The translations under genes and the position numbers were made by a program. Of a stretch of 55,092 nucleotides of DNA, positions 11,081 to 33,504 are shown piece after piece (the first letter of the stretch is position 1; each line of letters opens with the position of its first letter). The notes beneath the pieces are model-generated. The model worked only from the letters and a program-made list of their open reading frames with translations, ran no database searches and was not told the origin of the DNA. Source of the stretch: a virus (Duplodnaviria > Caudoviricetes); IMG/VR virus record IMGVR_UViG_3300037882_003063, positions 1-55,092 of that record; one strand, given 5' to 3'.

Positions 11081-11110
11081 GGTAAAACTCCTTTTTGTTT
11101 CGTGACGAAA

Positions 11111-11139
11111 CCTGTGATAACCCGCACAGGCAACGGGGC
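11111..11139 (-). other. Intergenic pseudoknot-like element, copy 1
   Basis: GCCCCG-ttg-CCTGTG-CGGG-ttat-CACAGG; 11088-11137 matches 33449-33498 (inverted) at 49/50 nt. Confidence 0.6.
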
Positions 11140-11147
11140 AGATGGTT

Positions 11148-11570
11148 TTAGCGTTGTTGGTGTTCCCAAAAAAGCTCTTTATAGCGCAGTAGGTCATTCA
11201 CAAAAAGAGCTTTGAAAGTTTCGGGGTCAGTACGGGCGGCGGCAATAGAACCGAAAACTTCATGGTTGGCAATCTCGAGGGCGGTGATAATCGCACGGTA
11301 AGGCTTGGCAAACTCGATACCATCAGCCATGTCAATTTGGTCAAGGGCGAAGTTGCGTAGTGGCTCGAGCTTGGCGCTAAAGAATGTGTCGGTCAGGGCT
11401 TCACTGTCAGAGAAGTGTTGAAGCATTGTAAAGAAGCTCCAAGTCATCCAGTCGCTACGGTCAGCCAAAGTCATATTGTTATTCATGTGCTTACAAATTT
11501 GCTCGAGAACTGCCACACGGAAAGCATTGATGTTTAGGGCGGCGTTTAACACTGCTTGATTAAGTATCAT
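11148..11570 (-). CDS. Hypothetical protein
   Basis: Start at 11570 (AGGAG RBS, ATGA overlap). Confidence 0.7.
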   Translation of the reverse strand: MILNQAVLNAALNINAFRVAVLEQICKHMNNNMTLADRSDWMTWSFFTMLQHFSDSEALTDTFFSAKLEPLRNFALDQIDMADGIEFAKPYRAIITALEIANHEVFGSIAAARTDPETFKALFVNDLLRYKELFWEHQQR

Positions 11571-11968
11571 GATGGGACTCCTTGGGATTGTTTTGCGGGA
11601 GGAGGGCTTAGGTGTTGGTGATAAGCGGCTCGAGGGACTAAGATGCCTTTTTTGACAGCTTCGGCGCTCCATTCGGGCGTACCCACGACTTCCCAAATCC
11701 AAACACCAGTAGTATTGTCTTTGCCGATGCAAGTACATATTGCGCCAACACCAAGCTGCTTGGGCGAAAATTCGCTTTCTTTGTATTTGCCAGAGCTAAC
11801 GCCAAGGGTGTGAGCAGAGTTGTGGAACGTGAGCGATTCGGTGAACTTGTGGGCGCTGCTTATTTCGTAAAGTACGCCATCCTCGAGCCGACAGCTACCG
11901 AATGCACCGAATTTTGCATGACCTAATAACTGACCCTTTTTGCCTTCGCTAAAATCAAAGATTTTCAT
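11567..11968 (-). CDS. Hypothetical protein
   Basis: Start at 11968 (GGAG RBS), MKIFDFSE. Confidence 0.7.
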   Translation of the reverse strand: MKIFDFSEGKKGQLLGHAKFGAFGSCRLEDGVLYEISSAHKFTESLTFHNSAHTLGVSSGKYKESEFSPKQLGVGAICTCIGKDNTTGVWIWEVVGTPEWSAEAVKKGILVPRAAYHQHLSPPPAKQSQGVPS

Positions 11969-11977
11969 TTTTGGACT

Positions 11978-12011
11978 CCGTGCCTGTGATAACCCGCACA
12001 GGCACGGGGGC
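11978..12011 (-). other. Intergenic pseudoknot-like element, copy 2
   Basis: CCCG-tg-CCTGTG-CGGG-ttat-CACAGG immediately before the GGAG RBS. Confidence 0.6.
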
Positions 12012-12017
12012 TTAGGT

Positions 12018-12311
12018 TTAGGAAAAGATTTTCTCGAGCAGGGTATTAAGTCTGGTTTGACCCTCGGGCGTATCGCTAAAGAGTTCGTCAAGACGGGTGC
12101 AAGTGTCGGGTGAAAAGTTGTATTTGTAGGCATCGTAATATGTAATGGCTTCGCCTTCAATCGTAAACCAAACATCATCTTGTGTTGGGCTACACACTAA
12201 CCATTCGGCGGGTTTCTCGCTACCCATTTTATAGACTGATACTGCGATAGGGCAGTTAAGGTCTTTGGCGGTTTGAAGAGCTTGACGGGCGGTGTACGGG
12301 ATGTGTGTCAT
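12018..12311 (-). CDS. Hypothetical protein, first gene of cassette A left operon
   Basis: ATG at 12311 follows the AAGGAGG of the cassette arm. Confidence 0.75.
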   Translation of the reverse strand: MTHIPYTARQALQTAKDLNCPIAVSVYKMGSEKPAEWLVCSPTQDDVWFTIEGEAITYYDAYKYNFSPDTCTRLDELFSDTPEGQTRLNTLLEKIFS

Positions 12312-12313
12312 AT

Positions 12314-12602
12314 GTGCTACCTCCTTGGTAGTGAGTGCATAGTATCGTGCATTTTGGAGTTGTACTAGGGACATTTATCCCATACCTAATTTGACCTGCT
12401 TCTATGGGTTCAAAGGGTCAAGGGTAGTGCCTTTATACGCACCGTGAGCGCTTTTAAGCCTGCTTTGGGTCGTTCTGTGGCTCGAGTTACCAGAGCGCTA
12501 TATATAAGGGATTCTAGGCGATTCTAGGAGTCGGGACATTTATCACTGGTATACCTTTCTTGTGTATCGTTATGATGCACTCACTACCAAAGGAGGTAGC
12601 AC
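12314..12602. promoter_or_regulatory. Bidirectional promoter cassette A
   Basis: Inverted arms 12314-12340 and 12575-12602; leftward TAGTAC-17-TACTAT, rightward TATGAT; GGGACATTTATC boxes at 12368 and 12533. Confidence 0.85.
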
Positions 12603-12605
12603 CCC

Positions 12606-12932
12606 ATGAAACGACACGAATTTATTATCATCAACGACATTGAATGCCGCCCTGACCGTCAAGTGCAAGCGCAGTTTGCAGGAACGGACACAAAACACCT
12701 AACATCTATTGCGCTCATGAACTGCACGGATGCAGATACGCCCCAAGCAGCGATTGATGGTCTTAAAGAAGCCATGACCAAACCATTTGAATTCGCAAAC
12801 TACCAATTCGCAGAAAAGGTCATCCGCCCCCTACTCACTGACGAAACCCTAGGCTCGAGTATCCGCCACGTTTACACAATCGGGTTTTATAGCGTTTATG
12901 CAGCAGCAGCAGCAAAGAAGGTGAGCAAATGA
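12606..12932 (+). CDS. Hypothetical protein
   Basis: AGGAGG RBS supplied by the cassette arm. Confidence 0.75.
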   Translation: MKRHEFIIINDIECRPDRQVQAQFAGTDTKHLTSIALMNCTDADTPQAAIDGLKEAMTKPFEFANYQFAEKVIRPLLTDETLGSSIRHVYTIGFYSVYAAAAAKKVSK

Positions 12933-13258
12933 AGCCCGATGATATGTTTGAACTCCTAGGCGGTAAGAATTCGCTTGTGGCTATGGTAGACGCTCATATG
13001 TTTACCTGTTCCAAAAAAGACGGTTCTGTTAGTTTCCACTTCAAGGGACATAGTAAGTGTAACATTTGCACACTCACACCCGCGCCCGATGCTACTTTCA
13101 CGCTCACGCTTCACAAGTTTGTCAAGTCCACTGGTGAAATTGGTGTTTTTACAAAAACCGAGGGTGTCAAGCCCTCCCGCCTTATGTACTGCTTTGAGAT
13201 GCAAACAGGCTTAAGACTTCAAGTGCATTTTTCCTATGAGGCTTTGGTGTGGAAATGA
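12929..13258 (+). CDS. Hypothetical protein (resembles a small LGG...FE..TGL mobile-element family)
   Basis: ATGA coupling; family resemblance is from memory only. Confidence 0.7.
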   Translation: MKPDDMFELLGGKNSLVAMVDAHMFTCSKKDGSVSFHFKGHSKCNICTLTPAPDATFTLTLHKFVKSTGEIGVFTKTEGVKPSRLMYCFEMQTGLRLQVHFSYEALVWK

Positions 13259-13485
13259 TAACTTTAGAATTTTCGGTTGGATCAAGAACCGCCCTCGAGA
13301 AGTACATTCAAAAGAAGCTGCGTATCCAAGCCCAAGGCGCTATCAAGGATGTTACCGAATGGGAGGACATCCGCTCTGATGGGATTGAAGCTCTTGGGTA
13401 CATTCTGCGTGAAAATCCAGTCTTGGGTTATCACGACCAAGCCCAAGCCCAAGCCATTAGCGACAAGCAAAAGGGTCGTGTATGA
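13255..13485 (+). CDS. Hypothetical protein
   Basis: ATGA coupling at both ends. Confidence 0.6.
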   Translation: MITLEFSVGSRTALEKYIQKKLRIQAQGAIKDVTEWEDIRSDGIEALGYILRENPVLGYHDQAQAQAISDKQKGRV

Positions 13486-13655
13486 CAAAAGAATTTTATG
13501 AAGTCATAGAAATGTTTGAAAAGCATTTCACGGGTCGAAGGCTTGACAAGGAGGATAAAGCCCGTTGGAAAGAGGGAATTGTTTACCAGCATGGCGAACT
13601 GAACGAACTTTTTAAGGCGTTCCGTTTAGGCTATTACTTTGGCAAATCGGTTTAA
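13482..13655 (+). CDS. 57-aa hypothetical protein (not in track)
   Basis: MTKEFYEVIEMFEKHF...FKAFRLGYYFGKSV; ATGA-coupled. Confidence 0.7.
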   Translation: MTKEFYEVIEMFEKHFTGRRLDKEDKARWKEGIVYQHGELNELFKAFRLGYYFGKSV

Positions 13656-13661
13656 GGTCTT

Positions 13662-13689
13662 GCCCGTCCTCGAGCGGGTCATCTCGAGG
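13662..13689 (+). other. Intergenic pseudoknot-like element, copy 3 (covariant stem)
   Basis: GCCCG-t-CCTCGAG-CGGGT-cat-CTCGAGG then AAGGAG RBS. Confidence 0.6.
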
Positions 13690-13699
13690 AAGGAGTTTT

Positions 13700-14041
13700 A
13701 TGTTTATCGAGTGCATGGACGGGATTTTTTGGAATGTTACTCAAGCCCAGTCAATTTCATATTACCCTACTAATGAATTTATAAAAGTACCAGCAGAACA
13801 GGAGCGCGACAAAGATGCCCCTGACGGCTACAAAGCACCCGAGGGATGGGAGTACGAACCTGACGAGCATATGTTTTATCGCCCATTTGAGTACACCATT
13901 AAACTCACTTTTCCAGATGACAGCGTAGTTAGGTTGAGAAAATACAAAACCGAAGCCGAAGCCCGTTCTTTTTGCCGTGACCTTGCGGCACTGCTATCTA
14001 GCAAGCCGCCCTTAATCCTTAACTCGCAGAAACGCTTTTAA
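13700..14041 (+). CDS. Hypothetical protein
   Basis: AAGGAG RBS; followed by a terminator. Confidence 0.75.
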   Translation: MFIECMDGIFWNVTQAQSISYYPTNEFIKVPAEQERDKDAPDGYKAPEGWEYEPDEHMFYRPFEYTIKLTFPDDSVVRLRKYKTEAEARSFCRDLAALLSSKPPLILNSQKRF

Positions 14042-14065
14042 GGCTATTCAAACCACAAGGTAAGG

Positions 14066-14099
14066 AAAGACCCTAGGGAATCACTCCTAGGGTCTTTTT
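14066..14099. terminator. Terminator between convergent genes
   Basis: AAAGACCCTAGG / CCTAGGGTCTTT stem plus T run. Confidence 0.8.
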
Positions 14100-14114
14100 G
14101 ATGCCTTCTAGCGC

Positions 14115-14618
14115 TCAGGCGGGTATCCTTGACTGCTCGAGTTTGTCCATTTCTGCTTGGTGCAATTCTTTAAGCTGACCCATTGAAAGCTCAGCGTCAA
14201 AGGGTACACCCATATCAGTGAGGGCATTGATATACCACTGCTTGCTCGAGCGGCTTACTTTCGCTTTGTCTTGCACTTGCTTTTCTTCTTCTTGGGCTTC
14301 ATTCAAATCCTCCCATAGCGCTATGAGTTGCTTAAGAGTGTAATCGCTTGGGTCGTCTTTTTCGTCGAAGACACCGCCTTCTTGAAGGGCTTTGACATAA
14401 TCTTCAAACGTAACAGGTGAGCTAGAATTCACAACTTCGGATTCTTGCTTTTGTTTGAAGTCACTAGGCTTAGACGGGGTTTGCCCCATAGTTTCGTCGG
14501 CTTCCTCCTGCGATTCGTAAGGCACAAAGCCTTCACCCGCTAACCAACGACCAGAAGCCCCGAATTGGTCTAAAAAGTTTCCTTGGGGAGTACCGCTCAC
14601 TTGATAACCTGCTTTCAT
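14115..14618 (-). CDS. Acidic head-associated protein with HeH/LEM-like C-terminal motif
   Basis: GAGGTG RBS; directly after the major capsid gene; C-terminal LTDMGVPFDAELSMGQLKEL. Confidence 0.55.
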   Translation of the reverse strand: MKAGYQVSGTPQGNFLDQFGASGRWLAGEGFVPYESQEEADETMGQTPSKPSDFKQKQESEVVNSSSPVTFEDYVKALQEGGVFDEKDDPSDYTLKQLIALWEDLNEAQEEEKQVQDKAKVSRSSKQWYINALTDMGVPFDAELSMGQLKELHQAEMDKLEQSRIPA

Positions 14619-14643
14619 ATTGTTCACCTCGAGCCATACAATA

Positions 14644-14674
14644 GCAAAACCCCGTGCAGTTTGCACGGGGTTGC
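14644..14674 (-). terminator. Terminator after the major capsid gene
   Basis: AACCCCGTGCA / TGCACGGGGTT stem; adjacent to a 15-bp palindrome copy. Confidence 0.7.
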
Positions 14675-14689
14675 TGTTTCGTCACGAAA

Positions 14690-15823
14690 TTAAGGTGTTT
14701 GGTATGGGATGTTAAACACAAAAACGTTTTCTGGGTTAAGGATGACTGGCAAGGTTGTAGCCCAACCAGAAAGCTCGACCCGTGGCGGTTTGGTTTGAAA
14801 GGATTCTGCAAGCGTAACGATTTTACTTGTGCTTGCACCAGCAGGGCGACCAATGGCGGTATACCCAAGGGTGTCGTCTGGAGTGACAAAATCTTCGCCA
14901 TCGCCCAAGTCAATTCGTTCACTTCGCCCTGTCTCGCAAACAATCACGAAAGCAGTGTCACGCATAAAGCGTTTAGTGCCAACGTCTTGACGGTAGGTGA
15001 GGTTGTACTCGATGATTGGGGGCAAGCCTTCCTGAGTCATGATGTTATTCAATCGGGCGGCGCTTAGGTTCGCTTGGCTTTGAACCAACGTACCAGCGTT
15101 CACAAGAGAAATGTTGTTGACTCGAGCCTGAACCTTTGGGTGCTTTCGCAAAATTGACGTAATGCGGTTACTCGTGAAGATTCGACTTGGAATTAAGCCC
15201 TTGTCTCGCAAGAAGTCAACCGCATCAAAAATGTCTTGCAATGGGTCGAGGGTCGGGTCAAACCAACCATCAGGGACAGCAACACTACCCGATGGAATGG
15301 TGACACGATGCCCTGACGGATTCGAGTAAACAACAGTATCAAGAATACCCATGTCGGTTGTACGGGTGACTTGGGCATCACATATAGCTTCCCAACGCAT
15401 ACGCTCCATTTTTTCACGGAGGGCAAGGTTTACGGTGACATTAAAGAATGAGGCTAAGTTCACTCGAGCCAAATCTGGTAAATCTTGGTCAAGAGTCTCG
15501 AGCAAGGCATCATAATTTTCTGCTGACATTTCAGAGCCAACATCAATATGCCCAAGCTCGACCAACATTGAACCCGTGCGAATGCCTTCTTTTAACTGCA
15601 CAGGGCTGTAACGAGTACCATCATTTGCAATGATGGTGAGGTATTGCACACCATTTTCACGGTAGATGTTACCCTGCTTTGCCGTGGTGGGTTTTTCTGG
15701 CAGGATGGTAGCCCCAAGGTATTGACGGTTTGCATCACCGAATTGAACCCTTGGGCTGTTGGCAAGGTCAACGAAAGTACCATCATTCACTAACTCATCA
15801 ACTAACTGAGCGATATTCAGCAT
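14690..15823 (-). CDS. Major capsid protein (lambda E-like)
   Basis: 377 aa after scaffold and decoration genes; ERMRWEAI, DPLQDI and LPVILNPENV motifs. Confidence 0.88.
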   Translation of the reverse strand: MLNIAQLVDELVNDGTFVDLANSPRVQFGDANRQYLGATILPEKPTTAKQGNIYRENGVQYLTIIANDGTRYSPVQLKEGIRTGSMLVELGHIDVGSEMSAENYDALLETLDQDLPDLARVNLASFFNVTVNLALREKMERMRWEAICDAQVTRTTDMGILDTVVYSNPSGHRVTIPSGSVAVPDGWFDPTLDPLQDIFDAVDFLRDKGLIPSRIFTSNRITSILRKHPKVQARVNNISLVNAGTLVQSQANLSAARLNNIMTQEGLPPIIEYNLTYRQDVGTKRFMRDTAFVIVCETGRSERIDLGDGEDFVTPDDTLGYTAIGRPAGASTSKIVTLAESFQTKPPRVELSGWATTLPVILNPENVFVFNIPYQTP

Positions 15824-16242
15824 TACGCTACACCTCCCTGAGCGCCCGTCTGCAAGATGTATTTACTGCTTAATGCGGTACGGGCTGCACCAGTATAAGC
15901 AATTGGTAAGTAGGCTTCACGAATGGTGGTGTTAGGGCGAACAAAAGTAGCTTCATTGTTTTTGTTCACAATGTCGAGAACGTCAAATGCAAGCAAGTAT
16001 GTTTCTGCCATGCCTGCCGCATTGCCAGTGGTCACAGGAACAAACTTGGCTCGAGCGGTACGGTCTGCATCAGTACGCCCCCAAAGTGTTCCAGCCTGAG
16101 CGTTCTTACGCCCGTTCGTACCAGCAACCAATGTGGTTGCATCCAAGGCAGCACCAGCAGGAATCAATCTTTCGGTTGAAAGATAATCCGCCGCCCATCT
16201 TGGTTGTGACCGTGCGCCTGTTTCGTCAATTACTTTAGCCAT
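15823..16242 (-). CDS. Head decoration protein
   Basis: 139 aa, Ala/Thr-rich, immediately upstream of the capsid gene; AGTLWGR motif. Confidence 0.7.
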   Translation of the reverse strand: MAKVIDETGARSQPRWAADYLSTERLIPAGAALDATTLVAGTNGRKNAQAGTLWGRTDADRTARAKFVPVTTGNAAGMAETYLLAFDVLDIVNKNNEATFVRPNTTIREAYLPIAYTGAARTALSSKYILQTGAQGGVA

Positions 16243-16255
16243 GATTCAACCCTCC

Positions 16256-17041
16256 TTATGTGGGTTTTTTGGGTTTGAAACCACTCAGCACCTTCGAGCT
16301 AACACTGCCCTTAGTGCTTTCGTGTGGAGTCCTGTCACTACTTTTTTGTGGTAGCACAGGGGGTTTCTTGCCGTTTTCTTTAGGCTCGACTGACAATGCG
16401 GGTAAGAGCAGCTTTAGAAAGCTGTGTGATTCAAAGTATTCGCTTAACGCCGTGCGTTTAGCGGCTTTGCCCTCACCTTCAACAACAAAAGCGGTTTCGG
16501 TGTGAACCGTTACCTTTTCGCCCTTGCTATTCGTTTGCACTGTTGGGACTGGTACGACTTCAAGATTAAGCGCGTACTGCAACGCTATTTCATTGAGTGT
16601 CTTACCATTCCAGCCCATTAAGTCAGCAACTTTTGTGTTCAGAGCCTCGAGTTCAATGCCCTTGACTTTCCCTCGTAACTCATCACGTTCAGCTATGGCA
16701 GCCTGAACCTCCGACAATTTACCAACTGCTTGATAAGCAGCTAACTGCTTTTGGGCTTCGTTAAGACCTTGTAACTGCGAACGATAATTTTTGTTATCAG
16801 TCTCGAGCCTAACGACCTTATCACTGAGGGCTTTCGTTGTCATGCTCTCGAGTTCGGTCATTCTTTCCGACTGGTAAGCAGCATCGGTCTTGCCATCATC
16901 TTTTTCAGGGGGCTTACTAGGCGGCTCTTTTGTTTCAGTAGCGGGTACAAAGTCGTCACCTGTATCAAAGAAGATGTTTTGCCCGAATGGATTGTACTGC
17001 GTCAGTAAATCCGCGCCAAAAACGTTCGTGTAGTCTTTCAT
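16256..17041 (-). CDS. Capsid scaffolding protein
   Basis: Coiled-coil, charged; between portal and decoration genes. Confidence 0.7.
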   Translation of the reverse strand: MKDYTNVFGADLLTQYNPFGQNIFFDTGDDFVPATETKEPPSKPPEKDDGKTDAAYQSERMTELESMTTKALSDKVVRLETDNKNYRSQLQGLNEAQKQLAAYQAVGKLSEVQAAIAERDELRGKVKGIELEALNTKVADLMGWNGKTLNEIALQYALNLEVVPVPTVQTNSKGEKVTVHTETAFVVEGEGKAAKRTALSEYFESHSFLKLLLPALSVEPKENGKKPPVLPQKSSDRTPHESTKGSVSSKVLSGFKPKKPT

Positions 17042-17101
17042 GATAGCCCCTTATGCTTTGGCTTGCCGTGCAAACCAGAGTTTCCGCCGTGCGGTGTCAT
17101 G

Positions 17102-17130
17102 ATTATGCACGGTTGGGCTTAATTGTGCAA
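17102..17130 (-). promoter_or_regulatory. Promoter of the head operon
   Basis: TTGCAC-17-CATAAT; shares CCGTGCATAAT with the promoter near 35970. Confidence 0.55.
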
Positions 17131-17133
17131 GCT

Positions 17134-18744: not shown

Positions 18745-18774
18745 ATGATGATTGTACTTGTTTCGTGACGAAAT

Positions 18775-18828: not shown

Positions 18829-18852
18829 GTGCATTGTAACAAGTAGACGCTT

Positions 18853-19523: not shown

Positions 19524-19749
19524 TTTGCTTACCGCCTTTGTTGAATTGAACTCGAGCCATCCACTTGAAAAAGGCATCACGGGGTAGGCTGACCGATAGC
19601 TTCAAAGTGTCTTGTTTTGTGAAGTGGCTAACGTTGAAGCCCTTGGCTTGTTTCGTGACGAAACTACCAGCAAGCGAGTGGGTGTAATTGAGTTTTGATT
19701 CAACAAACTCAGGTCTTAAGTAGGAACGAAGGGGCGGCATATTTTTCAT
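19516..19749 (-). CDS. Hypothetical protein (possible RHH-like C-terminus)
   Basis: GAGG RBS; LKLSVSLPRDAF motif. Confidence 0.5.
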   Translation of the reverse strand: MKNMPPLRSYLRPEFVESKLNYTHSLAGSFVTKQAKGFNVSHFTKQDTLKLSVSLPRDAFFKWMARVQFNKGGKQNE

Positions 19750-20330: not shown

Positions 20331-20346
20331 AAAACGATTGTAGAGG

Positions 20347-23517: not shown

Positions 23518-23539
23518 CCTGTGTGACCTGTGAGCCTCT

Positions 23540-25477: not shown

Positions 25478-25480
25478 GGT

Positions 25481-25758
25481 GTGCTACCTCCTTGGTAGTG
25501 AGTGCAAGGTATCATGCAAAATACAAATAGACTAGGGACGTTTGTCTAGTAGTGACTTTTTGGCTTTTGGTCGTCTCATAACCCTGTCTTGTGAGTGCTG
25601 TGAGCGCTTATAAGGCTGTCCTAGGCTGTCTCATGGCTCGAGTTACCAGACAGCTATATATAAGGCATTGTGAGCCATTCTAGGAGTCGGGACATTTATC
25701 ACTGTTTTAGGCGTTGGGTGTATCGTTACAATGCACTCACTACCAAAGGAGGTAGCAC
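25481..25758. promoter_or_regulatory. Bidirectional promoter cassette B
   Basis: Inverted arms 25481-25506 and 25731-25758; leftward TAGTCT-17-TACCTT, rightward TACAAT; boxes at 25535 and 25689. Confidence 0.85.
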
Positions 25759-25759
25759 C

Positions 25760-25969
25760 ATGAACGAACACACTTGCCCTACGTGCGATGGTACTGGAAT
25801 TGTTGAAGAGGTTCGCTCTTACTTTGACCAACACCAACAGCAATGGTATCTCGATTTCAAAGAAAAGCCATGCCTTGGCTGCTCACACGAAGAGCCTTAT
25901 GAGCCTGACGCTTGGGACTTTGACCGTGACTTCCCAACCTATCCCGACAGCGAAGACTTGCCCTTCTAA
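25760..25969 (+). CDS. Small acidic Zn-finger protein
   Basis: CPTCDGTG...CLGC; cassette RBS. Confidence 0.7.
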   Translation: MNEHTCPTCDGTGIVEEVRSYFDQHQQQWYLDFKEKPCLGCSHEEPYEPDAWDFDRDFPTYPDSEDLPF

Positions 25970-25978
25970 GAGGTTCTT

Positions 25979-26369
25979 ATGCTGATACCTGACAAACTCA
26001 CAGGCACGTCAATCCCTCGAGCAATAACCCATGTGGACGGCAAAGCCCTGACTATCAAGCAACAAAAAAAACGTTTATGTGAATATCGCCCACTCGAGAG
26101 GTATAGTTTTTGGTACGTTCCTCTATGACACTGACCTAAAATGTGGTTATGGGATTTACATGGTCATCATGGGAATCCTCAAGTTAAGCCCCAAACTGGT
26201 TTGGGATGTAGCGCTCGAATTGGATGCTAACGCCCATTGGACAGCAACCAAAGGCATACCAGATTATGAGGCGGTGCAGTTACGCCTTAAGAGTGGCAAC
26301 TGTGAGTATGTCATCAAACAAATTTTTGTCCATCAGTCTATCGCCCCTAGTCTTGTAAGGAGTTCTTAA
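25979..26369 (+). pseudogene. Gene split by a frameshift at an A8 run (26064-26071)
   Basis: ATG at 25979 has an RBS and stops after 49 aa; removing one A joins it in frame to 26079..26369, which has no RBS. Confidence 0.5.
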
Positions 26370-26370
26370 C

Positions 26371-26559
26371 ATGAAAGCTGAAAAAATCGCCCTCGACTAC
26401 ATAAACGGCAACCTCTCTGATATTCGGTTAGCCCTTAAGGAACTAACTCCGATTGAGGCAGTCAAAACCATGTTTGCCGCCCGTACCTTCCTTGAGCAGC
26501 ACGGCGGCAAACACGACTGCTCGATTTTTGAAAAGTGGGTCTCGAGGATGAGCGAATGA
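26371..26559 (+). CDS. Hypothetical protein
   Basis: AAGGAG RBS. Confidence 0.7.
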   Translation: MKAEKIALDYINGNLSDIRLALKELTPIEAVKTMFAARTFLEQHGGKHDCSIFEKWVSRMSE

Positions 26560-26744
26560 AGAAGCCCCTTGAAGTATTTGATTATCGAGGTTTTGAAGTT
26601 TCCAAGCGTTCGGCTGATAGCTACAGCGCCCAAAACAAAGCAGTTTGTAATTATGTTCTGCTTGCATCCACTAAAGAATCCATTCAAGCAATGATTGATG
26701 ACGAGCTTGCCCTCAAAGGAATTGGTTTATATGAAAATTACTGA
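26556..26744 (+). CDS. Hypothetical protein
   Basis: ATGA coupling. Confidence 0.6.
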   Translation: MKKPLEVFDYRGFEVSKRSADSYSAQNKAVCNYVLLASTKESIQAMIDDELALKGIGLYENY

Positions 26745-27252
26745 AAAATTCGTTCGTGAAGAACTGGCTCACGCCCTGACTCCTAATACTTCGCTCGAGT
26801 TGTACCCATCAGGCGGTTTGTGGTACGTCTGCGATAACGCCCAAAGGCGTTTAACTCTTGTGTCGGGTTCTCTTCGTGACTGCTATCATTTTCTTTGTGG
26901 TTACGCCACGGGTATGCCCAAAGTTAAAAGAGAAGAAGATGAGCAAAGGAATCTTTTACTTCTTTTAATGCCACGGGTTTTGGTTAGGTCGGAGCATGGT
27001 GAAAGCATGAAACTCTTAAATGCTGCAACTGCCGCCCTCTGGTTCGGTTCGGATAGCACCGATGTATTTTTGCAGCCTCTTAAAAATATGGGTGAGTATA
27101 TAAAAATAAAAGGCTTGATTCAATACGAAATTGAGTTAGGTGCATACCCCGCCTACCCTCACCATGATTTTATTCGTTGCGGCAAAGACACAACGAAAGA
27201 GCAACGCTTAGCCCGACTCGAGTACATTCTAAGTAAATACGCCGTTTCGTGA
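26731..27252 (+). CDS. Hypothetical protein
   Basis: AAGGA RBS; the stop codon lies inside a 15-bp palindrome copy. Confidence 0.7.
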   Translation: MKITEKFVREELAHALTPNTSLELYPSGGLWYVCDNAQRRLTLVSGSLRDCYHFLCGYATGMPKVKREEDEQRNLLLLLMPRVLVRSEHGESMKLLNAATAALWFGSDSTDVFLQPLKNMGEYIKIKGLIQYEIELGAYPAYPHHDFIRCGKDTTKEQRLARLEYILSKYAVS

Positions 27253-27264
27253 CGAAACAAAAAC

Positions 27265-27296
27265 AAAACCCGTGCAAATAAATGCACGGGTTTTTT
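27265..27296. terminator. Bidirectional terminator
   Basis: AAAACCCGTGCA / TGCACGGGTTTT between convergent genes. Confidence 0.85.
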
Positions 27297-27341
27297 GACG
27301 GCTGCACGTCTAGGGCATCTTAGTCTTTGGTCGTGAGAATT

Positions 27342-27965
27342 CTATAACGTCTGCCTTGGTGGTACTGGGTTAAGTGTGAGCTTTGCACCCGTCACAGGGT
27401 CAGTTAAATCGCCCGTAACGCCTAGTCTTAGGATGTTTGCTGTGATTAAAACATCGTTAAGGCAATAACTTGTCAGTTCGGCGTGTTTGCCGTGCTGATA
27501 CATCATGGGGGCGTAGTGACCGCCGTTCCCTGTCTTCTCGAATCCGTTAGCTCGAGCGATTGAATCAACGTTGTAACCAGAGACGGTCTTGCCCTTCGTG
27601 AAGTTTGGCGGCTGACCGCTTGCAATTCTGACCTCTTGCAAGAGGTCGTAATCAGTCCAGACGTTTACGCCATGAAAACCCAAGACCTTATCATCAAAGC
27701 CCTTTGAGTTGAAGCCAACGATAGAGGCAGTCCCAAAGTCCTTTGGAATTTCAGACAAACGCTTTTCGTCATAAACTTCAAACTGAACGGGCGTGTAATG
27801 CTGGTCGAGCCAACAAGCAACAAGAATACTAAAACCCATTCCAGCGTAATCGCCCCAACTTGTGGCATATGACAAACCCGCTATCATCTCGCTAGGGTCA
27901 CGGGGCATAATCGGTCTTTTAATCTCGAGGTCGTAGACGACTATCGGCGCATTGAACTTATTCAT
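27342..27965 (-). CDS. DEDD-family 3'-5' exonuclease (RNase H-like)
   Basis: YDLEIK, VGFNSKGFD, YCLNDV motifs. Confidence 0.85.
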   Translation of the reverse strand: MNKFNAPIVVYDLEIKRPIMPRDPSEMIAGLSYATSWGDYAGMGFSILVACWLDQHYTPVQFEVYDEKRLSEIPKDFGTASIVGFNSKGFDDKVLGFHGVNVWTDYDLLQEVRIASGQPPNFTKGKTVSGYNVDSIARANGFEKTGNGGHYAPMMYQHGKHAELTSYCLNDVLITANILRLGVTGDLTDPVTGAKLTLNPVPPRQTL

Positions 27966-28228
27966 TTTTTAGCCTTACCTTGTCGCTTTCTGAGAGGCTT
28001 TATAACAGGCTTCGGAAGCAATTCTGGTGTTACTACCTTCAAAACGGGTTCAAGAGGCTTTACGACCCGTCTTGAGACCCATGCTGACAGCTTTTGGTCG
28101 AATGGTTTAACCCTGTATTCGTTCCCTCGAGTTTCCATGACCTGTGAGGGTATCTCACGGTAAACACTCCCGCCCTCGAGTTTCGGGATGTGTACGCACC
28201 AAAGAACGCTAATCATTTTCAGGCTCAC
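27962..28228 (-). CDS. Hypothetical protein
   Basis: Part of an overlapping chain; start uncertain. Confidence 0.5.
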   Translation of the reverse strand: MSLKMISVLWCVHIPKLEGGSVYREIPSQVMETRGNEYRVKPFDQKLSAWVSRRVVKPLEPVLKVVTPELLPKPVIKPLRKRQGKAKK

Positions 28229-28634
28229 TTAAGGCTAAGTGATTAAGGTTAATGTCACTCACGGGCGCAACAAGACGAACACCACTCGAGACCTTAACGG
28301 CAAAGTCAGCGCTAACTTTTTCCTCCATCAAGCTCAGGGCGGCTTTCGACTCACGCATAAACTCCTCGAGCGTTACGTGTTCACCGCCTGAATTTCTGAA
28401 TGGGGCTAAGCCTAAAACGTTATTTAGGATTTCTGCCACAGCCAAGGTCTCACGGTAATATGCGTTAAAGCTCTTATTGCCGTTTAGGACTTGGCTACGG
28501 CTTGCCAGTTGCTCCATTCGGAGCTTTTGGTCTGCAAAATGCTCTAAGAGTGCTTGGGCTACTCTCTTAACTTCTAGCGCTTCTTCGACTTCATTCATTG
28601 CTGTTTCAATCTCATTCGCCGTTACTGTCTTCAT
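28209..28634 (-). CDS. Hypothetical helical protein
   Basis: Overlaps the ParB-N gene stop. Confidence 0.6.
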   Translation of the reverse strand: MKTVTANEIETAMNEVEEALEVKRVAQALLEHFADQKLRMEQLASRSQVLNGNKSFNAYYRETLAVAEILNNVLGLAPFRNSGGEHVTLEEFMRESKAALSLMEEKVSADFAVKVSSGVRLVAPVSDINLNHLALSEPEND

Positions 28635-29436
28635 CGTTATCACCGTCCTCTAGCTCGAGCTTTGGGGCATCCGCTATTGTCGAGTCACCAAACTCTTTGC
28701 CGTCTTGAAAATTTTTGTGCATCAATGCAATCAGGTCAGGGGCGGCAAAAGCGCGGCTTGAATCTGGCAACCCTAAAGTTTCCATAAAGCTATCCTTGGC
28801 GGTCTTATCGGCGAAGGTCAGAATCAAGTAATGGTCTCGTGACTCCCCCGCTTGGTCAACTTCTAGGTATTCCTTTTTGCGGTCTTTAATTGCTTGAATC
28901 TGAGCGGCTGCTTTTGCTTCGTCAGCCTGTAGCCCTTGCGAGTCGGGTTCATCAGGGATACCAAACCCGTAAGTCTCAGCCCAGTCATCAATTTTGTCAG
29001 GAAACTCTAATTCAAGCTCGAGACGGTCAAAGCCAACTTCAAGAGGATTGACCCCATCATCAAAGATGTCAGCCAGTAACTCCAATTCGTATTGTCCTTG
29101 AAGGGCTGGATTATTGAGGATGATATTGATTTCCTTCTCTTCTTTTTCGGTCTTCTCAACCATTGACACGTCAAGAAGGTAATCAGGTGACTTCTCGAGC
29201 ATATCAAGAATCAAGACCCGTTGGTGACCACCCACAATGTTGCCCGTAGTCTTGTTCCATGTGACCGTGCCAACAAGACCGTGCTTTTCTATTGCCTCTC
29301 GCAACCTCTTACGGGCTGTCTCGTGAATCATTCGAGGGTTGTAAATCGCGTTCTTTAACTCGGAGCGGTGAACCCTAACGTTCTCGAATTTTTGGTAACG
29401 AGTTAGTTGCCCCTCCTTACTCTTAGCCTTAGCCAT
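28612..29436 (-). CDS. ParB/Srx N-terminal domain protein (IbrB-like)
   Basis: LKNAIYNPR, IEKHGLVGTVTWN, IVGGHQR; acidic C-terminus; no obvious HTH. Confidence 0.85.
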   Translation of the reverse strand: MAKAKSKEGQLTRYQKFENVRVHRSELKNAIYNPRMIHETARKRLREAIEKHGLVGTVTWNKTTGNIVGGHQRVLILDMLEKSPDYLLDVSMVEKTEKEEKEINIILNNPALQGQYELELLADIFDDGVNPLEVGFDRLELELEFPDKIDDWAETYGFGIPDEPDSQGLQADEAKAAAQIQAIKDRKKEYLEVDQAGESRDHYLILTFADKTAKDSFMETLGLPDSSRAFAAPDLIALMHKNFQDGKEFGDSTIADAPKLELEDGDNDEDSNGE

Positions 29437-30109
29437 TTTTTAACTCCATTTCATATTTTACTATTGCCGCTTCTGCGTAGGGATATTGCGCCAAAATTTT
29501 TATATAGTCATCTGGAAACCGTTTCCTTATTTCATATAACCAAGCTCCTTTTAATTGACCGCCCCATGATTCATAGTTCATTGTGTAATCAGGCGGCATG
29601 ATGATTCGAGCGTGTTGTAAGGTTGCCATAACGTCCCGATTGTTCCACTGTGCAAGCGGATAGAACCGACCACGCTTAGGGTCAATGCCCTCGCACTTAT
29701 TGACCATCCCTCGACGGTCAAGAGAATCAATCATCTTTTCGCCGCCCGTTGTCCAGTAAACGCCATAATGTTTTTTGACCACTGTCTCGAGGTCGCTAAA
29801 CCCGACACGGCTAATCAATGGGTTATTGGTCATGGGGCGGTACTCACCGTCAATCATTGAATCAAACCCGTCAGGATGGCGAAGCTGCAAAATGGGAGTA
29901 TCGAATTTTTTGCTCAGGTAATTAAGATACCTTTCGACGAATCCAATGCCCTCGACGGTGTAATAGTGATACCCGCAAACCTCAAAGCCAAACCGTTTGA
30001 GGATAACCAAGGCGGCTACGCTGTCCTTACCGCATGATATACCAAGGGCAACGCGCTTCACGCCTGTTGCTTTGAATCTTTTAATAACGTCAAGTTTCTG
30101 CTTATCCAT
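29429..30109 (-). CDS. PAPS-reductase-like PP-loop protein (IbrA/DndC-like fold)
   Basis: PP-loop ISCGKDS; GEKMIDSLDRR; FYPLAQW. Confidence 0.85.
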   Translation of the reverse strand: MDKQKLDVIKRFKATGVKRVALGISCGKDSVAALVILKRFGFEVCGYHYYTVEGIGFVERYLNYLSKKFDTPILQLRHPDGFDSMIDGEYRPMTNNPLISRVGFSDLETVVKKHYGVYWTTGGEKMIDSLDRRGMVNKCEGIDPKRGRFYPLAQWNNRDVMATLQHARIIMPPDYTMNYESWGGQLKGAWLYEIRKRFPDDYIKILAQYPYAEAAIVKYEMELKNG

Positions 30110-30177
30110 AGAAACCTGTTTCGTGACGAAACAAAAAAACACCAAAGCATAAAGCTCTGGTGTCTACTTGAAAAAAA

Positions 30178-30492
30178 CTAGCGTCTACGGGCTGAGCCGT
30201 CACGGTTGACACGACGACCAGTTTTGGCATTGGTGTACCCGCCGCCGTCACGTTTCGTAATGCCCCGACCAAGTTTGACACTGGCTTTCTTGACGGCTGC
30301 TGCACCTTTACCTTTGCCCTTGGCGGCTGCTTTGGCTTTAGGTGCTGGTAAAGCCTTGGGCTTAGCGGCTCTTGGTAAAGCCTTCGGCGCTGCCTTTTTA
30401 GCCCTGGCTGGTGCTTTCTTAGCTGCTGGTTTCTTAGCTGCTGGTTTCTTAGCTGCTGGTTTCTTAGCTGCTGGTTTCTTTTTGGCTGCCAT
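30178..30492 (-). CDS. Histone H1-like Lys/Ala/Pro-rich basic protein
   Basis: KKPAA x4 encoded by identical 15-bp repeats (~30415-30480); almost no acidic residues. Confidence 0.85.
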   Translation of the reverse strand: MAAKKKPAAKKPAAKKPAAKKPAAKKAPARAKKAAPKALPRAAKPKALPAPKAKAAAKGKGKGAAAVKKASVKLGRGITKRDGGGYTNAKTGRRVNRDGSARRR

Positions 30493-30553
30493 AATAAAAC
30501 CCCCTTTGCGGTCTCAAAGGATGTTATCACGCCAAAATGGAGTGTTTGAGGGT

Positions 30554-30769
30554 TCACCATTCCACCTCTAAGGCATCATGGATAATCTTGCCCCGTTCGG
30601 TTGTACTGAGTGCCATATAAGCGGCGAAAGCCTCATCACTAAGGCGAACCTGTACCAGTCGTGACGTGTTCTTTTGACGGTCAGGGTCATTGCCCCAACG
30701 AGCAAAAGCGGCTTGTCGTTTCATCTCGCTCAGTTCTGCACCTGATAATTTAATCTCACTTTTTGACAT
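30554..30769 (-). CDS. Putative ribbon-helix-helix DNA-binding protein
   Basis: LVQVRLSDEAF...GKIIHDAL; GAGGGG RBS. Confidence 0.55.
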   Translation of the reverse strand: MSKSEIKLSGAELSEMKRQAAFARWGNDPDRQKNTSRLVQVRLSDEAFAAYMALSTTERGKIIHDALEVEW

Positions 30770-31196
30770 CTGACCCCTCAATTAAACTCAAGTAAATAAA
30801 ATAATTGTGGCTAACATCATCAAGGGCGGCGCTTAGAATCATTTCCTCAAATTGGGAGGATAAAAATTCTTCTTCTGATTCCTCTTCGTAAGACCCACAA
30901 TCGAGCAGGGCATCAGAGATAAGCTCGAGCCAGTCATCCTCTTCTTGGGTCATCTCACGACTAGGGGCTTTGCTAAAGACTCCTTCTTCATGCAAAGCTA
31001 AAAGGCGCTTAATGTCAACCGTCACGACCTTTTCAACCCTAGCCTTGATTGTGATGGGCGCAGTCCTAGCACCGAATTGCAAGGTGGCAATATCGCCTTG
31101 CAAAACCTTTGAAAATATAGGCTTGTCGCGCTGTGTAGCGCGTTTTAAGCCGCTTCGGTACTCGCCTAGGTGTTTCATCCTATGGGTGATATTCAT
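30756..31196 (-). CDS. ASCH/PUA-like domain protein
   Basis: SGLKRATQR...GDIA resembles the GxKxxTxR motif. Confidence 0.55.
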   Translation of the reverse strand: MNITHRMKHLGEYRSGLKRATQRDKPIFSKVLQGDIATLQFGARTAPITIKARVEKVVTVDIKRLLALHEEGVFSKAPSREMTQEEDDWLELISDALLDCGSYEEESEEEFLSSQFEEMILSAALDDVSHNYFIYLSLIEGSDVKK

Positions 31197-31849
31197 GACT
31201 GTATAGTATCATGCAAGGGTGCGTTTGTGAAGTCCCCGAGTTTAACGAGTCCATAAGACTTCATGATTGTTCGTATAATCTCTTGAGTGTTGTATTCGTT
31301 ATCGTTGAATAAGCCTTTTTTAATCATCGCGTAAACTTCGTCTATTTGCTGCTGTTCGGGCGTGGGTACGCTTCGAGTCCCGACAGCAACAAAAACGGTT
31401 TGTAAGACTGCTTTGGTCTGACCCACAAGTGACCTATCATCAGGCATCACTGAACACATAAGCTCGATAGGGGCGAACTGTAAATAATTTATTTCTCTGT
31501 TTGAAACATGGTGAACCTCTTCACCGACTATTTTTATTTCGGGCGTGTAAAAGTATGCTTTGACGCGGGGCGTGTTCCAGTTCTTGACTATACGAAACTG
31601 ATGTTCGTGTAGCTCTGGTTTGAAATGGGCAACGAGTTTTGCGTCTGCGTGAATCTCGAGGAAGTGATGCCTACTTGAGCCATCAAACACAGGGCTGTCA
31701 TAGTGCATCTTGACGAGTGTCTGACCGTCAAAAAAATGTATCGTATCCACACTCCGCATAAGGAAACTTGGCTTGTCGGGACTTTGGGTGTGTTGGTAAT
31801 CGGAATCGGCAGAGTGGTTGGGCGCGACTTTTCTTATTACTGTTTGCAT
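31193..31849 (-). CDS. Hypothetical protein
   Basis: AAGGAG RBS preceded by a GGCTCGAG/CTCGAGCC hairpin. Confidence 0.7.
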   Translation of the reverse strand: MQTVIRKVAPNHSADSDYQHTQSPDKPSFLMRSVDTIHFFDGQTLVKMHYDSPVFDGSSRHHFLEIHADAKLVAHFKPELHEHQFRIVKNWNTPRVKAYFYTPEIKIVGEEVHHVSNREINYLQFAPIELMCSVMPDDRSLVGQTKAVLQTVFVAVGTRSVPTPEQQQIDEVYAMIKKGLFNDNEYNTQEIIRTIMKSYGLVKLGDFTNAPLHDTIQS

Positions 31850-31899
31850 AAAACTCCTTAAAAGGCTCGAGCGGTTAAGCTCGAGCCGTGTGAGTGGGC

Positions 31900-32580
31900 T
31901 TAGACTTCTTGTGCTTGGTACTTACTCGAGATGTGAGACCATGACTGAGCTTTGCCTTTTCCAGCAGGAACACCCGCGTAATACCATTTTTGTTTGTTGG
32001 GCGACCAACGCAGTTTAAGCAGACCTAGCGCTTCTTTGTGTTTTTTGGTTTCGCCACTGACCCAAAGCCAAGCATTGGCGCGTTCGACCACAAGACCGTC
32101 GAGGAGCTTAAGGGCGGCAACGATTTGTTGGATTTTGGCTTCTACTTCGTCAGTGATTTTTGTTGTGCTTTGACCCGCTTGGGCGGATGCTTTGCGCTTC
32201 TCGTGAGCTTCATCAGTCTGAGCTTCGGCTTGGGCGCGGCGCTGCTTGGCTTCTTCGGCGCGTTTTGCGGCTTCTTTAACCTGTTCGTCAAACCATGCGG
32301 AGTGTGACCGACTTTGGTCACGGGCGTTAGAGCTTTTAGCGTATTTTGAGTTGCTAAAAGTCATATATCGCGTTCTTGGGTAGTTGCCTTTGGCGATAGC
32401 CTCTTTGACAGCCTTATGAACCGCGTTAATGGCTTGCATAATTTTTTTGTTACCGTTGGGGCGGTCAGGATGCCAACGTTTTGCAAGTTCCCTAAATCTG
32501 GTGGCGCAGTCTTCGCCGTTTCTAATGCTCGAGAAGTATGTCCATGCGGTTTCGAGGGCTTGCTGTTCGGTGTGTGTCAT
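31900..32580 (-). CDS. J-domain (DnaJ-like) protein
   Basis: RFRELAKRWHPDR; C-terminal WLWVSGET..HKE.L....RWS..KQKWY domain; cassette RBS at 32580. Confidence 0.85.
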   Translation of the reverse strand: MTHTEQQALETAWTYFSSIRNGEDCATRFRELAKRWHPDRPNGNKKIMQAINAVHKAVKEAIAKGNYPRTRYMTFSNSKYAKSSNARDQSRSHSAWFDEQVKEAAKRAEEAKQRRAQAEAQTDEAHEKRKASAQAGQSTTKITDEVEAKIQQIVAALKLLDGLVVERANAWLWVSGETKKHKEALGLLKLRWSPNKQKWYYAGVPAGKGKAQSWSHISSKYQAQEV

Positions 32581-32582
32581 AT

Positions 32583-32871
32583 GTGCTACCTCCTTGGTAG
32601 TGAGTGCATTGTATAATGCAGAATTAAGGGAGTCTAGGGACATTTATCTCATACCTAATTTGACCTGTTTCTATGGGTTTAAGCCGACTTTTAACCCTGT
32701 CTTGTGAGTGCTGTGAGCGCTTATAAGGCTGTCCTAGGCTGTCTCATGGCTCGAGTTACCAGACAGCTATATATAAGACATTGTGAGCCATTCTAGGAGT
32801 CGGGACATTTATCACTGTTTTAGGCGTTGGGTGTATCGTTACAATGCACTCAATACCAAAGGAGGTAGCAC
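32583..32871. promoter_or_regulatory. Bidirectional promoter cassette C
   Basis: Inverted arms 32583-32609 and 32844-32871; leftward TAGACT-17-TACAAT, rightward TACAAT; boxes at 32637 and 32802. Confidence 0.85.
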
Positions 32872-32874
32872 CCA

Positions 32875-33219
32875 ATGAAAAACGTACCAGACAGCGCCCA
32901 AGCAATCGCCAAACAATGCCTGAGCAACCCCGCCCACTTAATTTTTTGCATCACCATCAACCCTAACTTTTTGAGAGCGAGCGCCCATAAGAGATTCCCT
33001 CGCTTGCTTGACTTGCGCTTGCTTGACTTGCTCCTCACAGCTAAAAGTGGAATGACTGGAATCCCAAGCCCCGACTACTGCAAAACAGTTCACGCCCTTT
33101 GCGACGAGTTGACCATCGGCGGTTTGCTCCTTATCTGTGCAATTCTGCTACAAAAAACGAACATCGAAACGGCTCGAGTCTTCGGTAAAGCCCATGCGAT
33201 TTGGGAGGGTAATTTATGA
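32875..33219 (+). CDS. Hypothetical protein
   Basis: Cassette RBS. Confidence 0.7.
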   Translation: MKNVPDSAQAIAKQCLSNPAHLIFCITINPNFLRASAHKRFPRLLDLRLLDLLLTAKSGMTGIPSPDYCKTVHALCDELTIGGLLLICAILLQKTNIETARVFGKAHAIWEGNL

Positions 33220-33440
33220 ATTACATCGTGACGGGTCAGACGCAAAAAGATGTTGGCAATTCAAAAGCCTTTCACAAGCAATCGGTTTTTAGGATTGTAG
33301 CCGAATCAAAAGCTGATGCCCGAAGGGAAGCCGTCAAACTTGGAATGTCTAGGGTCATCTCTGTTTCTCAAGTCAAAGCCCTAAGAACTAGATTCCAACG
33401 TAGAAACTGGTCGGACTCAAGTTCACTCACCCACTGGTAA
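33216..33440 (+). CDS. Hypothetical protein
   Basis: GGGAGG RBS, ATGA overlap. Confidence 0.65.
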   Translation: MNYIVTGQTQKDVGNSKAFHKQSVFRIVAESKADARREAVKLGMSRVISVSQVKALRTRFQRRNWSDSSSLTHW

Positions 33441-33447
33441 GAATAAC

Positions 33448-33475
33448 GCCCGTTACCTGTGCGGGTTATCACAGG
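33448..33475 (+). other. Intergenic pseudoknot-like element, copy 4
   Basis: GCCCG-tta-CCTGTG-CGGGT-tat-CACAGG, then the 15-bp palindrome and AAGGAG. Confidence 0.6.
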
Positions 33476-33504
33476 TTTCGTCACGAAACAAAAAGGAGCA
33501 ACTT

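Follow-up and report, generated by a model that had tools for sequence, protein, structure and literature searches.

A pseudoknot-like RNA module, repeated four times in a tailed phage genome, resembles the 5' domain of the small RNA SorX

The virus record IMGVR_UViG_3300037882_003063 (Duplodnaviria; Caudoviricetes) was analysed over its full length of 55,092 base pairs (bp), and this whole stretch is called the window. It has direct terminal repeats of 99 bp and a completeness rating of 100%. Few of its proteins matched known families, namely the major head protein, the portal protein, the large terminase, a DnaB-type helicase, ERF, baseplate J and an HNH endonuclease. No transfer RNA (tRNA) gene was detected in the 55,092 bp. 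Four copies of a short element, here called the module, were located in the window, each between the stop codon of one gene and the start codon of the next. All four were confirmed by sequence inspection at the places and on the strands given in a preliminary description of this DNA. The module consists of two potential helices, S1 (strands S1a and S1b) and S2 (strands S2a and S2b), and of the loops L1 and L3, and its copies are arranged as follows.

11111..11137, (-) strand: copy 1, with S1a CCCG 11137-11134, L1 UUG, S2a CCUGUG 11130-11125, S1b CGGG 11124-11121, L3 UUAU 11120-11117 and S2b CACAGG 11116-11111; TAA 11150-11148 upstream, ATG 11080 downstream
11088..11111, (-) strand: second hairpin directly 3' of copy 1, the phage palindrome GUUUCGUCACGAAAC, with the Shine-Dalgarno (SD) sequence AAAAAGGAG
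11982..12008, (-) strand: copy 2, with S1a CCCG 12008-12005, L1 U, S2a GCCUGUG 12003-11997, S1b CGGG 11996-11993, L3 UUAU 11992-11989 and S2b CACAGGC 11988-11982; TAA 12020-12018 upstream, GGAG 11979-11976 and ATG 11968 downstream
13663..13689, (+) strand: copy 3, with S1a CCCG 13663-13666, L1 U, S2a CCUCGAG 13668-13674, S1b CGGG 13675-13678, L3 UCAU 13679-13682 and S2b CUCGAGG 13683-13689; TAA 13653-13655 upstream, SD AAGGAG 13690-13695 and ATG 13700 downstream
33449..33475, (+) strand: copy 4, with S1a CCCG 33449-33452, L1 UUA, S2a CCUGUG 33456-33461, S1b CGGG 33462-33465, L3 UUAU 33466-33469 and S2b CACAGG 33470-33475; TAA 33438-33440 upstream, ATG 33505 downstream
33475..33498, (+) strand: the same palindrome GUUUCGUCACGAAAC and SD AAAAAGGAG, directly 3' of copy 4

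The order S1a-L1-S2a-S1b-L3-S2b was observed in all four copies, with an S1 of 4 bp (CCCG/CGGG), an S2 of 6-7 bp and no L2. L1 was 3, 1, 1 and 3 nucleotides (nt) long in copies 1 to 4, and L3 was 4 nt in every copy, reading UUAU or UCAU. These loop lengths (L1 of 1-3 nt over a 6-8-bp S2, L3 of 4 nt over a 4-bp S1) would fit the textbook rules for coaxial stacking in H-type pseudoknots. The data support the prediction that each copy folds, as RNA, into a small H-type pseudoknot about 27-30 nt long, in which the 5' CCCG would pair with the first four loop bases, CGGG. S1a begins after a gap of 10, 9, 7 and 8 nt (copies 1 to 4) from the last base of the TAA, and the next ATG follows S2b after 30, 13, 10 and 29 nt. 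The SD abuts S2b in copy 3, lies 2 nt later in copy 2, and is found about 16 nt later, past the second hairpin, in copies 1 and 4. Two copies are forward and two reverse, and in all four the strand is that of the local genes. Copies 1 and 4 are part of a common 50-nt unit, 98% identical, made up of the knot, the palindrome GUUUCGUCACGAAAC and then AAAAAGGAG. Because of this shared unit the three copies with CCUGUG are not independent evidence, and copy 3, the only one with a differing S2, is the sole independent S2 evidence within this genome.

The pattern CCCGN{5,14}CGGGTYAT matched four times in the window against 0.10 expected, and none of 100 shuffles reached four. The reversed control pattern gave no match in the whole record. 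A 20-mer core was exact in three copies. Building a covariance model and searching phages and Rfam, as had been proposed for the element, was carried out, and the four copies were the sole credible matches in the window. With model R1, built from the motif and phage copies, E-values ranged from 2.6e-8 to 9e-4, and scores were 45.2 bits for copy 1 (E 1.7e-7), 32.3 for copy 2, 27.4 for copy 3 and 49.1 for copy 4 (E 2.6e-8). A fifth copy at 10431-10462 was rejected (14.9 bits with model R1, another loop, inside a coding sequence). The other two CGGGTTAT sites, at 34278 and 37662, were also rejected as copies, having no hairpin.

At gathering score, no Rfam family matched the window. In a relaxed Rfam search round the copies, the best match was the small RNA (sRNA) SorX (RF02784), with 25.1 bits for copy 3 (E 2.3e-4 in a 161-nt search) and 25.9 bits for copy 2, both short of the 46.6 bits set as gathering score. 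Model R3, derived solely from 21 SorX modules, placed the four window copies at ranks 1, 2, 3 and 5 in the 55 kb, with 28.4 bits for copy 2 (E 3.4e-5), 19.3 for copy 3 (0.0074), 13.7 for copy 1 (0.19) and 12.9 for copy 4 (0.32). The SorX 5' stem-loop carries the same parts in the same order and spacing, namely a tail CCC(G/U), an L1 of 1-5 nt, a 6-9-bp hairpin and a loop (C/G)GGG-UNAU, and the SorX seed starts 1-2 nt after S2b. A scan with a 19-base pattern of one genome per species gave 46 loci. Thirty were SorX genes, nearly all titled Rhodobacterales, in which CCUCCCUGUUGGAC, a terminator and a U run come after the module. Three others were hairpin-positive, found in a prophage of an Anaerohalosphaeraceae metagenome-assembled genome (related to L016), in Acetobacteraceae and in an intergenic region of Streptomyces typhae, where the module lies behind a terminator-like hairpin; 13 of the 46 had stems of at most 4 pairs and were chance matches. 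SorX was present in 145 of 151 sampled genomes of Rhodobacterales, 125 of them above the Rfam cut-off.

The phage copies differ from SorX in several respects. The CCUCCC seed follows none of the four, yet it was present in 30 of 30 SorX-type genome matches. No unit of about 75 nt is closed by a rho-independent terminator; instead a start codon follows the phage copies within 10-30 nt. The phage copies also lie within messenger RNAs (mRNAs), number four per genome where hosts have one, and do not stand behind a regulator gene. Since they have neither seed nor terminator, the phage copies are not SorX genes. Judged by their sequence, they are stand-alone versions, placed inside polycistronic mRNAs, of the module found at the very 5' end of SorX, an sRNA of Alphaproteobacteria. 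The motif had been called an undescribed cis-RNA motif, and this held in part: the hairpin is the 5' stem-loop of Rfam SorX, and the pseudoknot was not seen annotated in the structure line of cmscan. None of the searchable papers contained both 'SorX' and 'pseudoknot', the original SorX paper being outside that search, so that a prior description is possible. To the extent of the searches, a stand-alone use of the module in phages, here with four copies in one genome, has not previously been described.

Relatives of the module were sought in viral contigs by two scans. The first fixed both S1 strands and the loop and gave at least 118 loci, mostly chance matches; among those listed, the full motif with another S2 was found in five loci, four of them distinct (L016, L034, L067 and L068, with L097 as a duplicate). 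The second fixed only the loop and three closing pairs, left the 5' tail free, and gave at least 117 loci. Among the second-scan matches listed, CCCG was present in the 12 nt before the stem core in 11 of 16 loci with stems of at least 7 bp, and UCCG, which preserves a U-G pair with the loop, in one more. For stems of at most 4 bp among the same matches the count was 1 of 88 (Fisher p 2e-10, duplicates included). As CCCG is tied to long stems even where the tail was unspecified, the tail belongs to the motif independently of the search patterns. A model-based phage alignment was made with 20 rows, 19 of them distinct and one a false row from a coding sequence of the window. In the 19 distinct rows, seven of the eight S2 pairs changed on both sides, which bears out the earlier claim that S2 pairing is kept while the sequence changes, and 96.4% of S2 cells were paired compared to 76.8% in shuffles. 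All 10 other viral records examined carried the module once each, with differing S2, and the weaker extra matches in them were without the motif. The GC content of module-bearing viral records ranged from 32% to 64%. A host-type SorX hairpin gave no match in viral contigs.

The likeness to SorX raises the question of whether the phage copies act as a mimic or decoy of the host SorX 5' domain, recruiting or titrating a host factor such as a processing enzyme, a chaperone or an adaptor. In this way a phage could exploit the pathway by which SorX matures or interfere with the stress response of the host. The conservation of the tail and loop goes far beyond the needs of pairing, and copy 1 is one compensatory pair off the common SorX module over 27 nt (S1a through the 6-bp S2b core). 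In five Rhodobacterales genomes the module occurred once each, only in SorX, as against four times in this phage. However, we know of no factor that recognises a SorX-type knot. The module was also found in phages of 32% GC and in Streptomyces and Planctomycetota records, where SorX was not met, though it was not sought there. Furthermore, the capsid protein of the window phage had no match in 401 Rhodobacterales genomes. A decoy role is considered improbable. In viral contigs the capsid protein gave 13 pattern matches, none of them confirmed, and BLAST queries against named phages with positions 10000-15000 and with copy 4 gave no match.

Because S1 is invariant in phages, the phage sequences cannot decide on a pseudoknot, but the SorX relatives can. 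A SorX-family set of 110 loci (106 distinct sequences) was used. Ten of the 106 were left out because of another first hairpin (L396, L399, L401, L402, L405, L407, L408, L409, L411 and L412). Five of these, L399, L401, L402, L409 and L411 (Rhodobacterales), are SorX-model paralogues with CCUCCC seed and terminator, whose first hairpin is of the GAAGGCG...CGCCUUC type and has no pseudoknot tail. Since MAFFT put S1a in shifting registers, model-based alignments were used. Model R1 found only 35 matches in the SorX loci, one of them at a second, non-SorX place in L310, and was not used for the S1 count. A SorX-derived model blind to S1 pairing (model R2) gave 91 matches and 86 distinct rows, in which S1 was 96.6% paired. 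The outer pair was CG in 72 rows, GC in 2, AU in 1 and unpaired in 4; the inner pair was GC in 58, UG in 16, UA in 1, CG in 1 and unpaired in 4; the two middle pairs were invariant CG. No S1 cell was altered on one side and yet still paired. S1 thus covaried at two of its four pairs, and S2 at all seven. A few rows were misplaced by the model alignment (L309, L397, L380, L384 and L353), which lowers the S1 covariation counts; by eye, compensated pairs were found as UCCG with CGGA in L380 and L384 and as ACCG with CGGU in L353 and L406.

A register-free test asked if the 12-nt tail holds a perfect complement of its own first four loop bases; L329, L336 and L352 were also left out here. With G-U pairs allowed, this was the case in 88 of 94 sequences, against a mean of 67.2 (standard deviation 2.6, maximum 77) in 5000 loop shuffles. 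With Watson-Crick pairs only, it was 80 of 94 against a mean of 46.6 (standard deviation 3.1, maximum 58). The predicted knot is supported for the SorX module. Some points weigh against its extension to the phage. In the phage alignment, S1 read CG in 17 rows and UG in one and was otherwise invariant, and the search patterns had fixed CGGG. The covariation in SorX amounts to about 6-8 independent events by eye, and the shuffle controls ignore phylogeny. The knot is carried over to the phage copies by likeness of sequence and geometry to the SorX module. In copy 2, the nested fold lengthens S2 to 11 bp by means of the CCG of S1a and the GG of the SD (-21.7 kcal/mol, z -3.42), and this predicted extended hairpin is a competitor of the S1 pseudoknot. 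The proposed RNA-level H-type pseudoknot is supported by S1 in the SorX relatives (two of four pairs, 88 of 94 complements) and not by the invariant S1 of the phages.

Considering these points, it could be argued that only the S2 hairpin matters in the phage, as a 3' barrier for the upstream cistron or as a generic processing hairpin, with CCCG and CGGG being irrelevant. The module does stand close behind stop codons, S1 is without variation in phages, and the nested folds of copies 1, 3 and 4 did not exceed shuffles in stability (z -0.35, -1.42 and -1.04), the folding program having chosen an S1-type hairpin for copy 4. On the other hand, the unspecified CCCG was still tied to the hairpin (11 of 16 against 1 of 88 among the matches listed), and S1 covaries in SorX. 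A 3' barrier would be redundant where a terminator hairpin precedes the module. In addition, the module is the 5' end, not the 3' end, of the stable SorX product according to PMC6238624. A role for the hairpin alone appears decidedly unlikely.

The surroundings of the module were compared in nine loci outside the window. A tRNA gene was found within 1.5 kb in four of the nine, in all four on the strand of the module. The arrangements were as follows.

L123: module about 11 nt after a TAA, tRNA-Met 130 nt downstream of the module
L247: 3' end of a tRNA-Met, 26 nt, module, peptidase gene
L248: tRNA-Lys about 355 nt downstream of the module
L250: tRNA-Met about 360 nt downstream of the module
L124: terminator, about 25 nt, module, SD and ATG of a head scaffolding gene
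L220/L249 and L215: stop codon, hairpin, module, about 150 nt of non-coding RNA, terminator, major head gene
L227/L251: TAA, 7-8 nt, module, 24 nt, ATG, as in the window

The distance from the module to the upstream feature was 7-50 nt, and that to the next gene or tRNA ranged from 10 to 360 nt. The adjoining genes had no function in common. The position between a stop codon and the next ribosome binding site, given as a feature of the element, holds for the four window copies but not in general; elsewhere the module also follows terminators, lies beside tRNAs or heads non-coding units. L249 (the same as L220; 1499-1700) and L215 are GC-rich phage contigs related to each other; stretches of CUCCCC and CUCCUU occur in their unit of about 150 nt, and this module-headed unit is a candidate phage sRNA built like SorX. 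The order hairpin then module is common to the phage contexts L126, L124 and L249 and the Streptomyces site L287. Upstream of SorX in L316 (1421-1500, handle G140), a GC hairpin GGCGGGCUCGCCCGCU ends about 8 nt before the mature 5' end.

A cargo junction acting at the DNA level had also been considered in the preliminary description and is not supported, and the same goes for a recombination junction or a protein operator. In favour of a DNA site, the flanks of the 50-nt unit of copies 1 and 4 are unrelated. However, the compensatory changes preserve pairing and not sequence, the strand of the module always follows transcription, with adjoining tRNAs on the same strand in four of four cases, and the same module is found within an expressed RNA, SorX. 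A DNA site is regarded as extremely unlikely.

The position of the window copies behind their stop codons could instead reflect a link to translation. The knot would lie within reach of the terminating ribosome and would expose the SD or seed or switch with a rival hairpin, making initiation at the next gene dependent on the knot or on translation upstream. The gap of 7-10 nt after TAA in all four window copies fits such a role, as do the gaps of 7-8 nt in L251 and about 11 nt in L123. The SD abuts S2b in copy 3, the rival 11-bp hairpin of copy 2 buries the GG of GGAG, and the seed of SorX likewise begins 1-2 nt after S2b. In other phages, however, the stop codon is 26-50 nt away, or a terminator or tRNA precedes the module, and the distance to the next start or tRNA can be 130-360 nt; in copies 1 and 4, a second hairpin stands between the module and the SD. 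A link to translation is judged unlikely.

The following repeated region was also identified in the window by repeat comparison.

12313..12611, no strand assigned: repeated divergent regulatory region R1, with sister copies at 25480-25759 and 32582-32881

The three divergent intergenic regions, each of about 290 bp, are 72-95% identical, and both sides of each carry an identical SD and start context, AAGGAGGTAGCAC..ATGAAA. They are probably repeated bidirectional early promoters with 5' untranslated regions, the promoters being deduced. Copies 1-3 of the module sit 0.3-1.2 kb downstream of the region at 12313-12611, and copy 4 sits 0.57 kb downstream of the third, at 32582-32881. The module could be a put- or nut-like cis element that modifies RNA polymerase in the operons leaving these regions: copies 1-3 flank one region and copy 4 follows another, and the modules of L220 and L215 are followed by a terminator about 150 nt further on. 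But the second region (25480-25759) is flanked by no copy, terminators precede the module in L124 and L287, nothing like boxA or boxB was seen, and SorX needs no such function. A put- or nut-like role is very unlikely.

Several other identities were tried and rejected. A recoding signal for read-through or frameshifting was dismissed, as each downstream gene has its own SD and ATG and there is no slippery site before the stops; in copy 2, the downstream ATG is in a different frame from the upstream stop. The Rfam families preQ1, SAM-II, guanidine-III, HDV-like, pistol and twister gave no match in the window at gathering score and were also absent at E-values up to 10 round copies 3 and 4. The Rfam search round four other phage copies found only a tRNA. 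In a pistol-like fold, the pseudoknot partner is on the 3' side. The theta or HDV-like ribozymes beside phage tRNAs, as described in PMC10879173, have another architecture and gave no Rfam match. Mimicry of a tRNA anticodon arm was likewise considered, purely as an idea, and dropped. A riboswitch was rejected because the SD lies outside the knot and the downstream genes are unrelated. Finally, no promoter-like site adjoins any copy, and a sigma-70 promoter overlapping the motif was discarded.

In the favoured, though tentative, reading, the module would shield the RNA behind it at its 5' boundary. This proposal was drawn from the 5' end of SorX, the arrangement at gene 32 of phage T4 and the properties of the enzymes of RNA decay. 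RNase E and pyrophosphohydrolase require an unpaired 5' end, and H-type knots resist unwinding from the 5' side. In R. sphaeroides, the 5' end of the 75-nt SorX is an RNase E site at genome position 2,598,224 according to PMC6238624. The Rfam SorX match in the genome with the handle G140 (G140:C1) starts at 2,598,225 and S1a starts 2 nt later, so that the knot would engage nucleotides 3-6 of mature SorX. For T4 gene 32, PMC3014915 places an RNase E cut at -71 and a pseudoknot at -67; the RNA upstream decays rapidly, and of all T4 mRNAs the downstream one is the most stable. The exonuclease block and the processing site suggested in the preliminary description would agree with both precedents. 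By analogy, the module would mark and protect the 5' boundary of the RNA segment behind it. An RNase E-type enzyme would cut the transcript just upstream of the module, or the transcript would start there. The knot would leave few unpaired 5' nucleotides and lock the first helix topologically. In this way 5'-end-dependent decay would be blocked, be it 5'-end sensing or scanning by RNase E, removal of the 5' pyrophosphate or, where present, a 5'-3' exonuclease, and the downstream cistron or non-coding RNA would outlive the upstream segment. The contexts in other genomes, with the module behind terminators and tRNAs and heading non-coding units, fit a 5' boundary.

A number of observations count against a 5' shield. 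Cleavage upstream of the phage copies is proposed by analogy, and the two bases before S1a are GC, CC, UG and CG in the window compared to A/U-U in most SorX genes. A plain 5' hairpin would protect equally. The shield leaves the strict conservation of the tail and loop sequence unexplained, and this conservation hints at something more specific, e.g. a binding partner. The constant position 7-10 nt behind the stop in the window would also suit a role tied to translation.

Comparison with known systems showed both likenesses and differences. The intercistronic RNase III sites of T7 early mRNA are also repeated structures between early genes, which punctuate a polycistronic RNA and protect its products. 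The T7 hairpins are long and irregular and are cleaved by RNase III, and it is 3' ends that they protect, whereas the present pseudoknot of about 30 nt would form a 5' end by the SorX precedent. The exonuclease-resistant RNAs (xrRNAs) of flaviviruses and plant viruses are similar in that a small knot involving the 5' end could mechanically stop a 5'-3' enzyme. The ring fold of xrRNA, however, needs a three-way junction or a longer stem-loop, and none was seen in the present module. The T4 gene 32 leader offers a parallel to the proposed role: according to PMC3014915, RNase E makes the 5' end of this phage mRNA, and an H-type pseudoknot follows within a few nt. The T4 knot differs in that it occurs once, before one gene, and no sequence likeness was seen. 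It also nucleates the binding of gp32 for autoregulation, whereas a binding protein and cleavage are conjectural for the present module. By analogy, the element may be of the same type as the 5' pseudoknot of T4 gene 32, and made from the 5' domain of SorX.

A wider version of the 5' shield would make the module a portable '5' cap' for RNAs of bacteria and phages across phyla, either resisting 5'-end-dependent decay or serving as a handle for a conserved binding factor. Rhodobacterales would use the cap once, in SorX, and phages of several host phyla would put it before genes, tRNA clusters and small non-coding RNAs. This generalisation is speculative and rather doubtful. If it were true, the module would be a bacterial counterpart of the viral exonuclease-resistant RNAs. 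If the reading of the module as a 5' shield holds, a bacterial sRNA sub-domain would circulate as a stand-alone block among phages of very different base composition. The knot would add a tertiary feature to a known sRNA, SorX, and could explain the stability of its RNase E product. Being small and self-contained, the module would be a candidate part for stabilising RNA and would hint at a conserved link to the RNA decay machinery. The hypothesis is directly testable in an existing model, SorX of R. sphaeroides.

Other repeats were observed in the window. The palindrome GTTTCGTSACGAAAC has 19 window sites at up to 1 mismatch against 0.02 expected, e.g. at 8068-8082, 11097-11111, 19650-19664, 27244-27258, 33475-33489, 43793-43807 and 54292-54306. 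It often stands directly before an A-rich stretch and an SD, and two of its sites abut module copies 1 and 4. The palindrome may be a regulatory hairpin or operator of the phage's own. Followed by A5, it gave no match in viral contigs and 10 loci in metagenomes. The module was present in none of these ten, and their DNA likeness to the window was only the palindrome match of 20-24 nt (blastn). Seven metagenome contigs of about 53% GC (L420-L425 and L428) had a single exact 21-nt match to the palindrome with AAAAA and no other blastn likeness to the window. A perfect 11-bp hairpin, AACCCCGTGCAGTTTGCACGGGGTT, lies at 14648-14672 between convergent gene blocks and resembles a bidirectional terminator. 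Tandem repeats within open reading frames of the window were found at 3189-3375 (3 x 69 nt) and at 30407-30481 and 39694-39767 (each about 5 x 15 nt).

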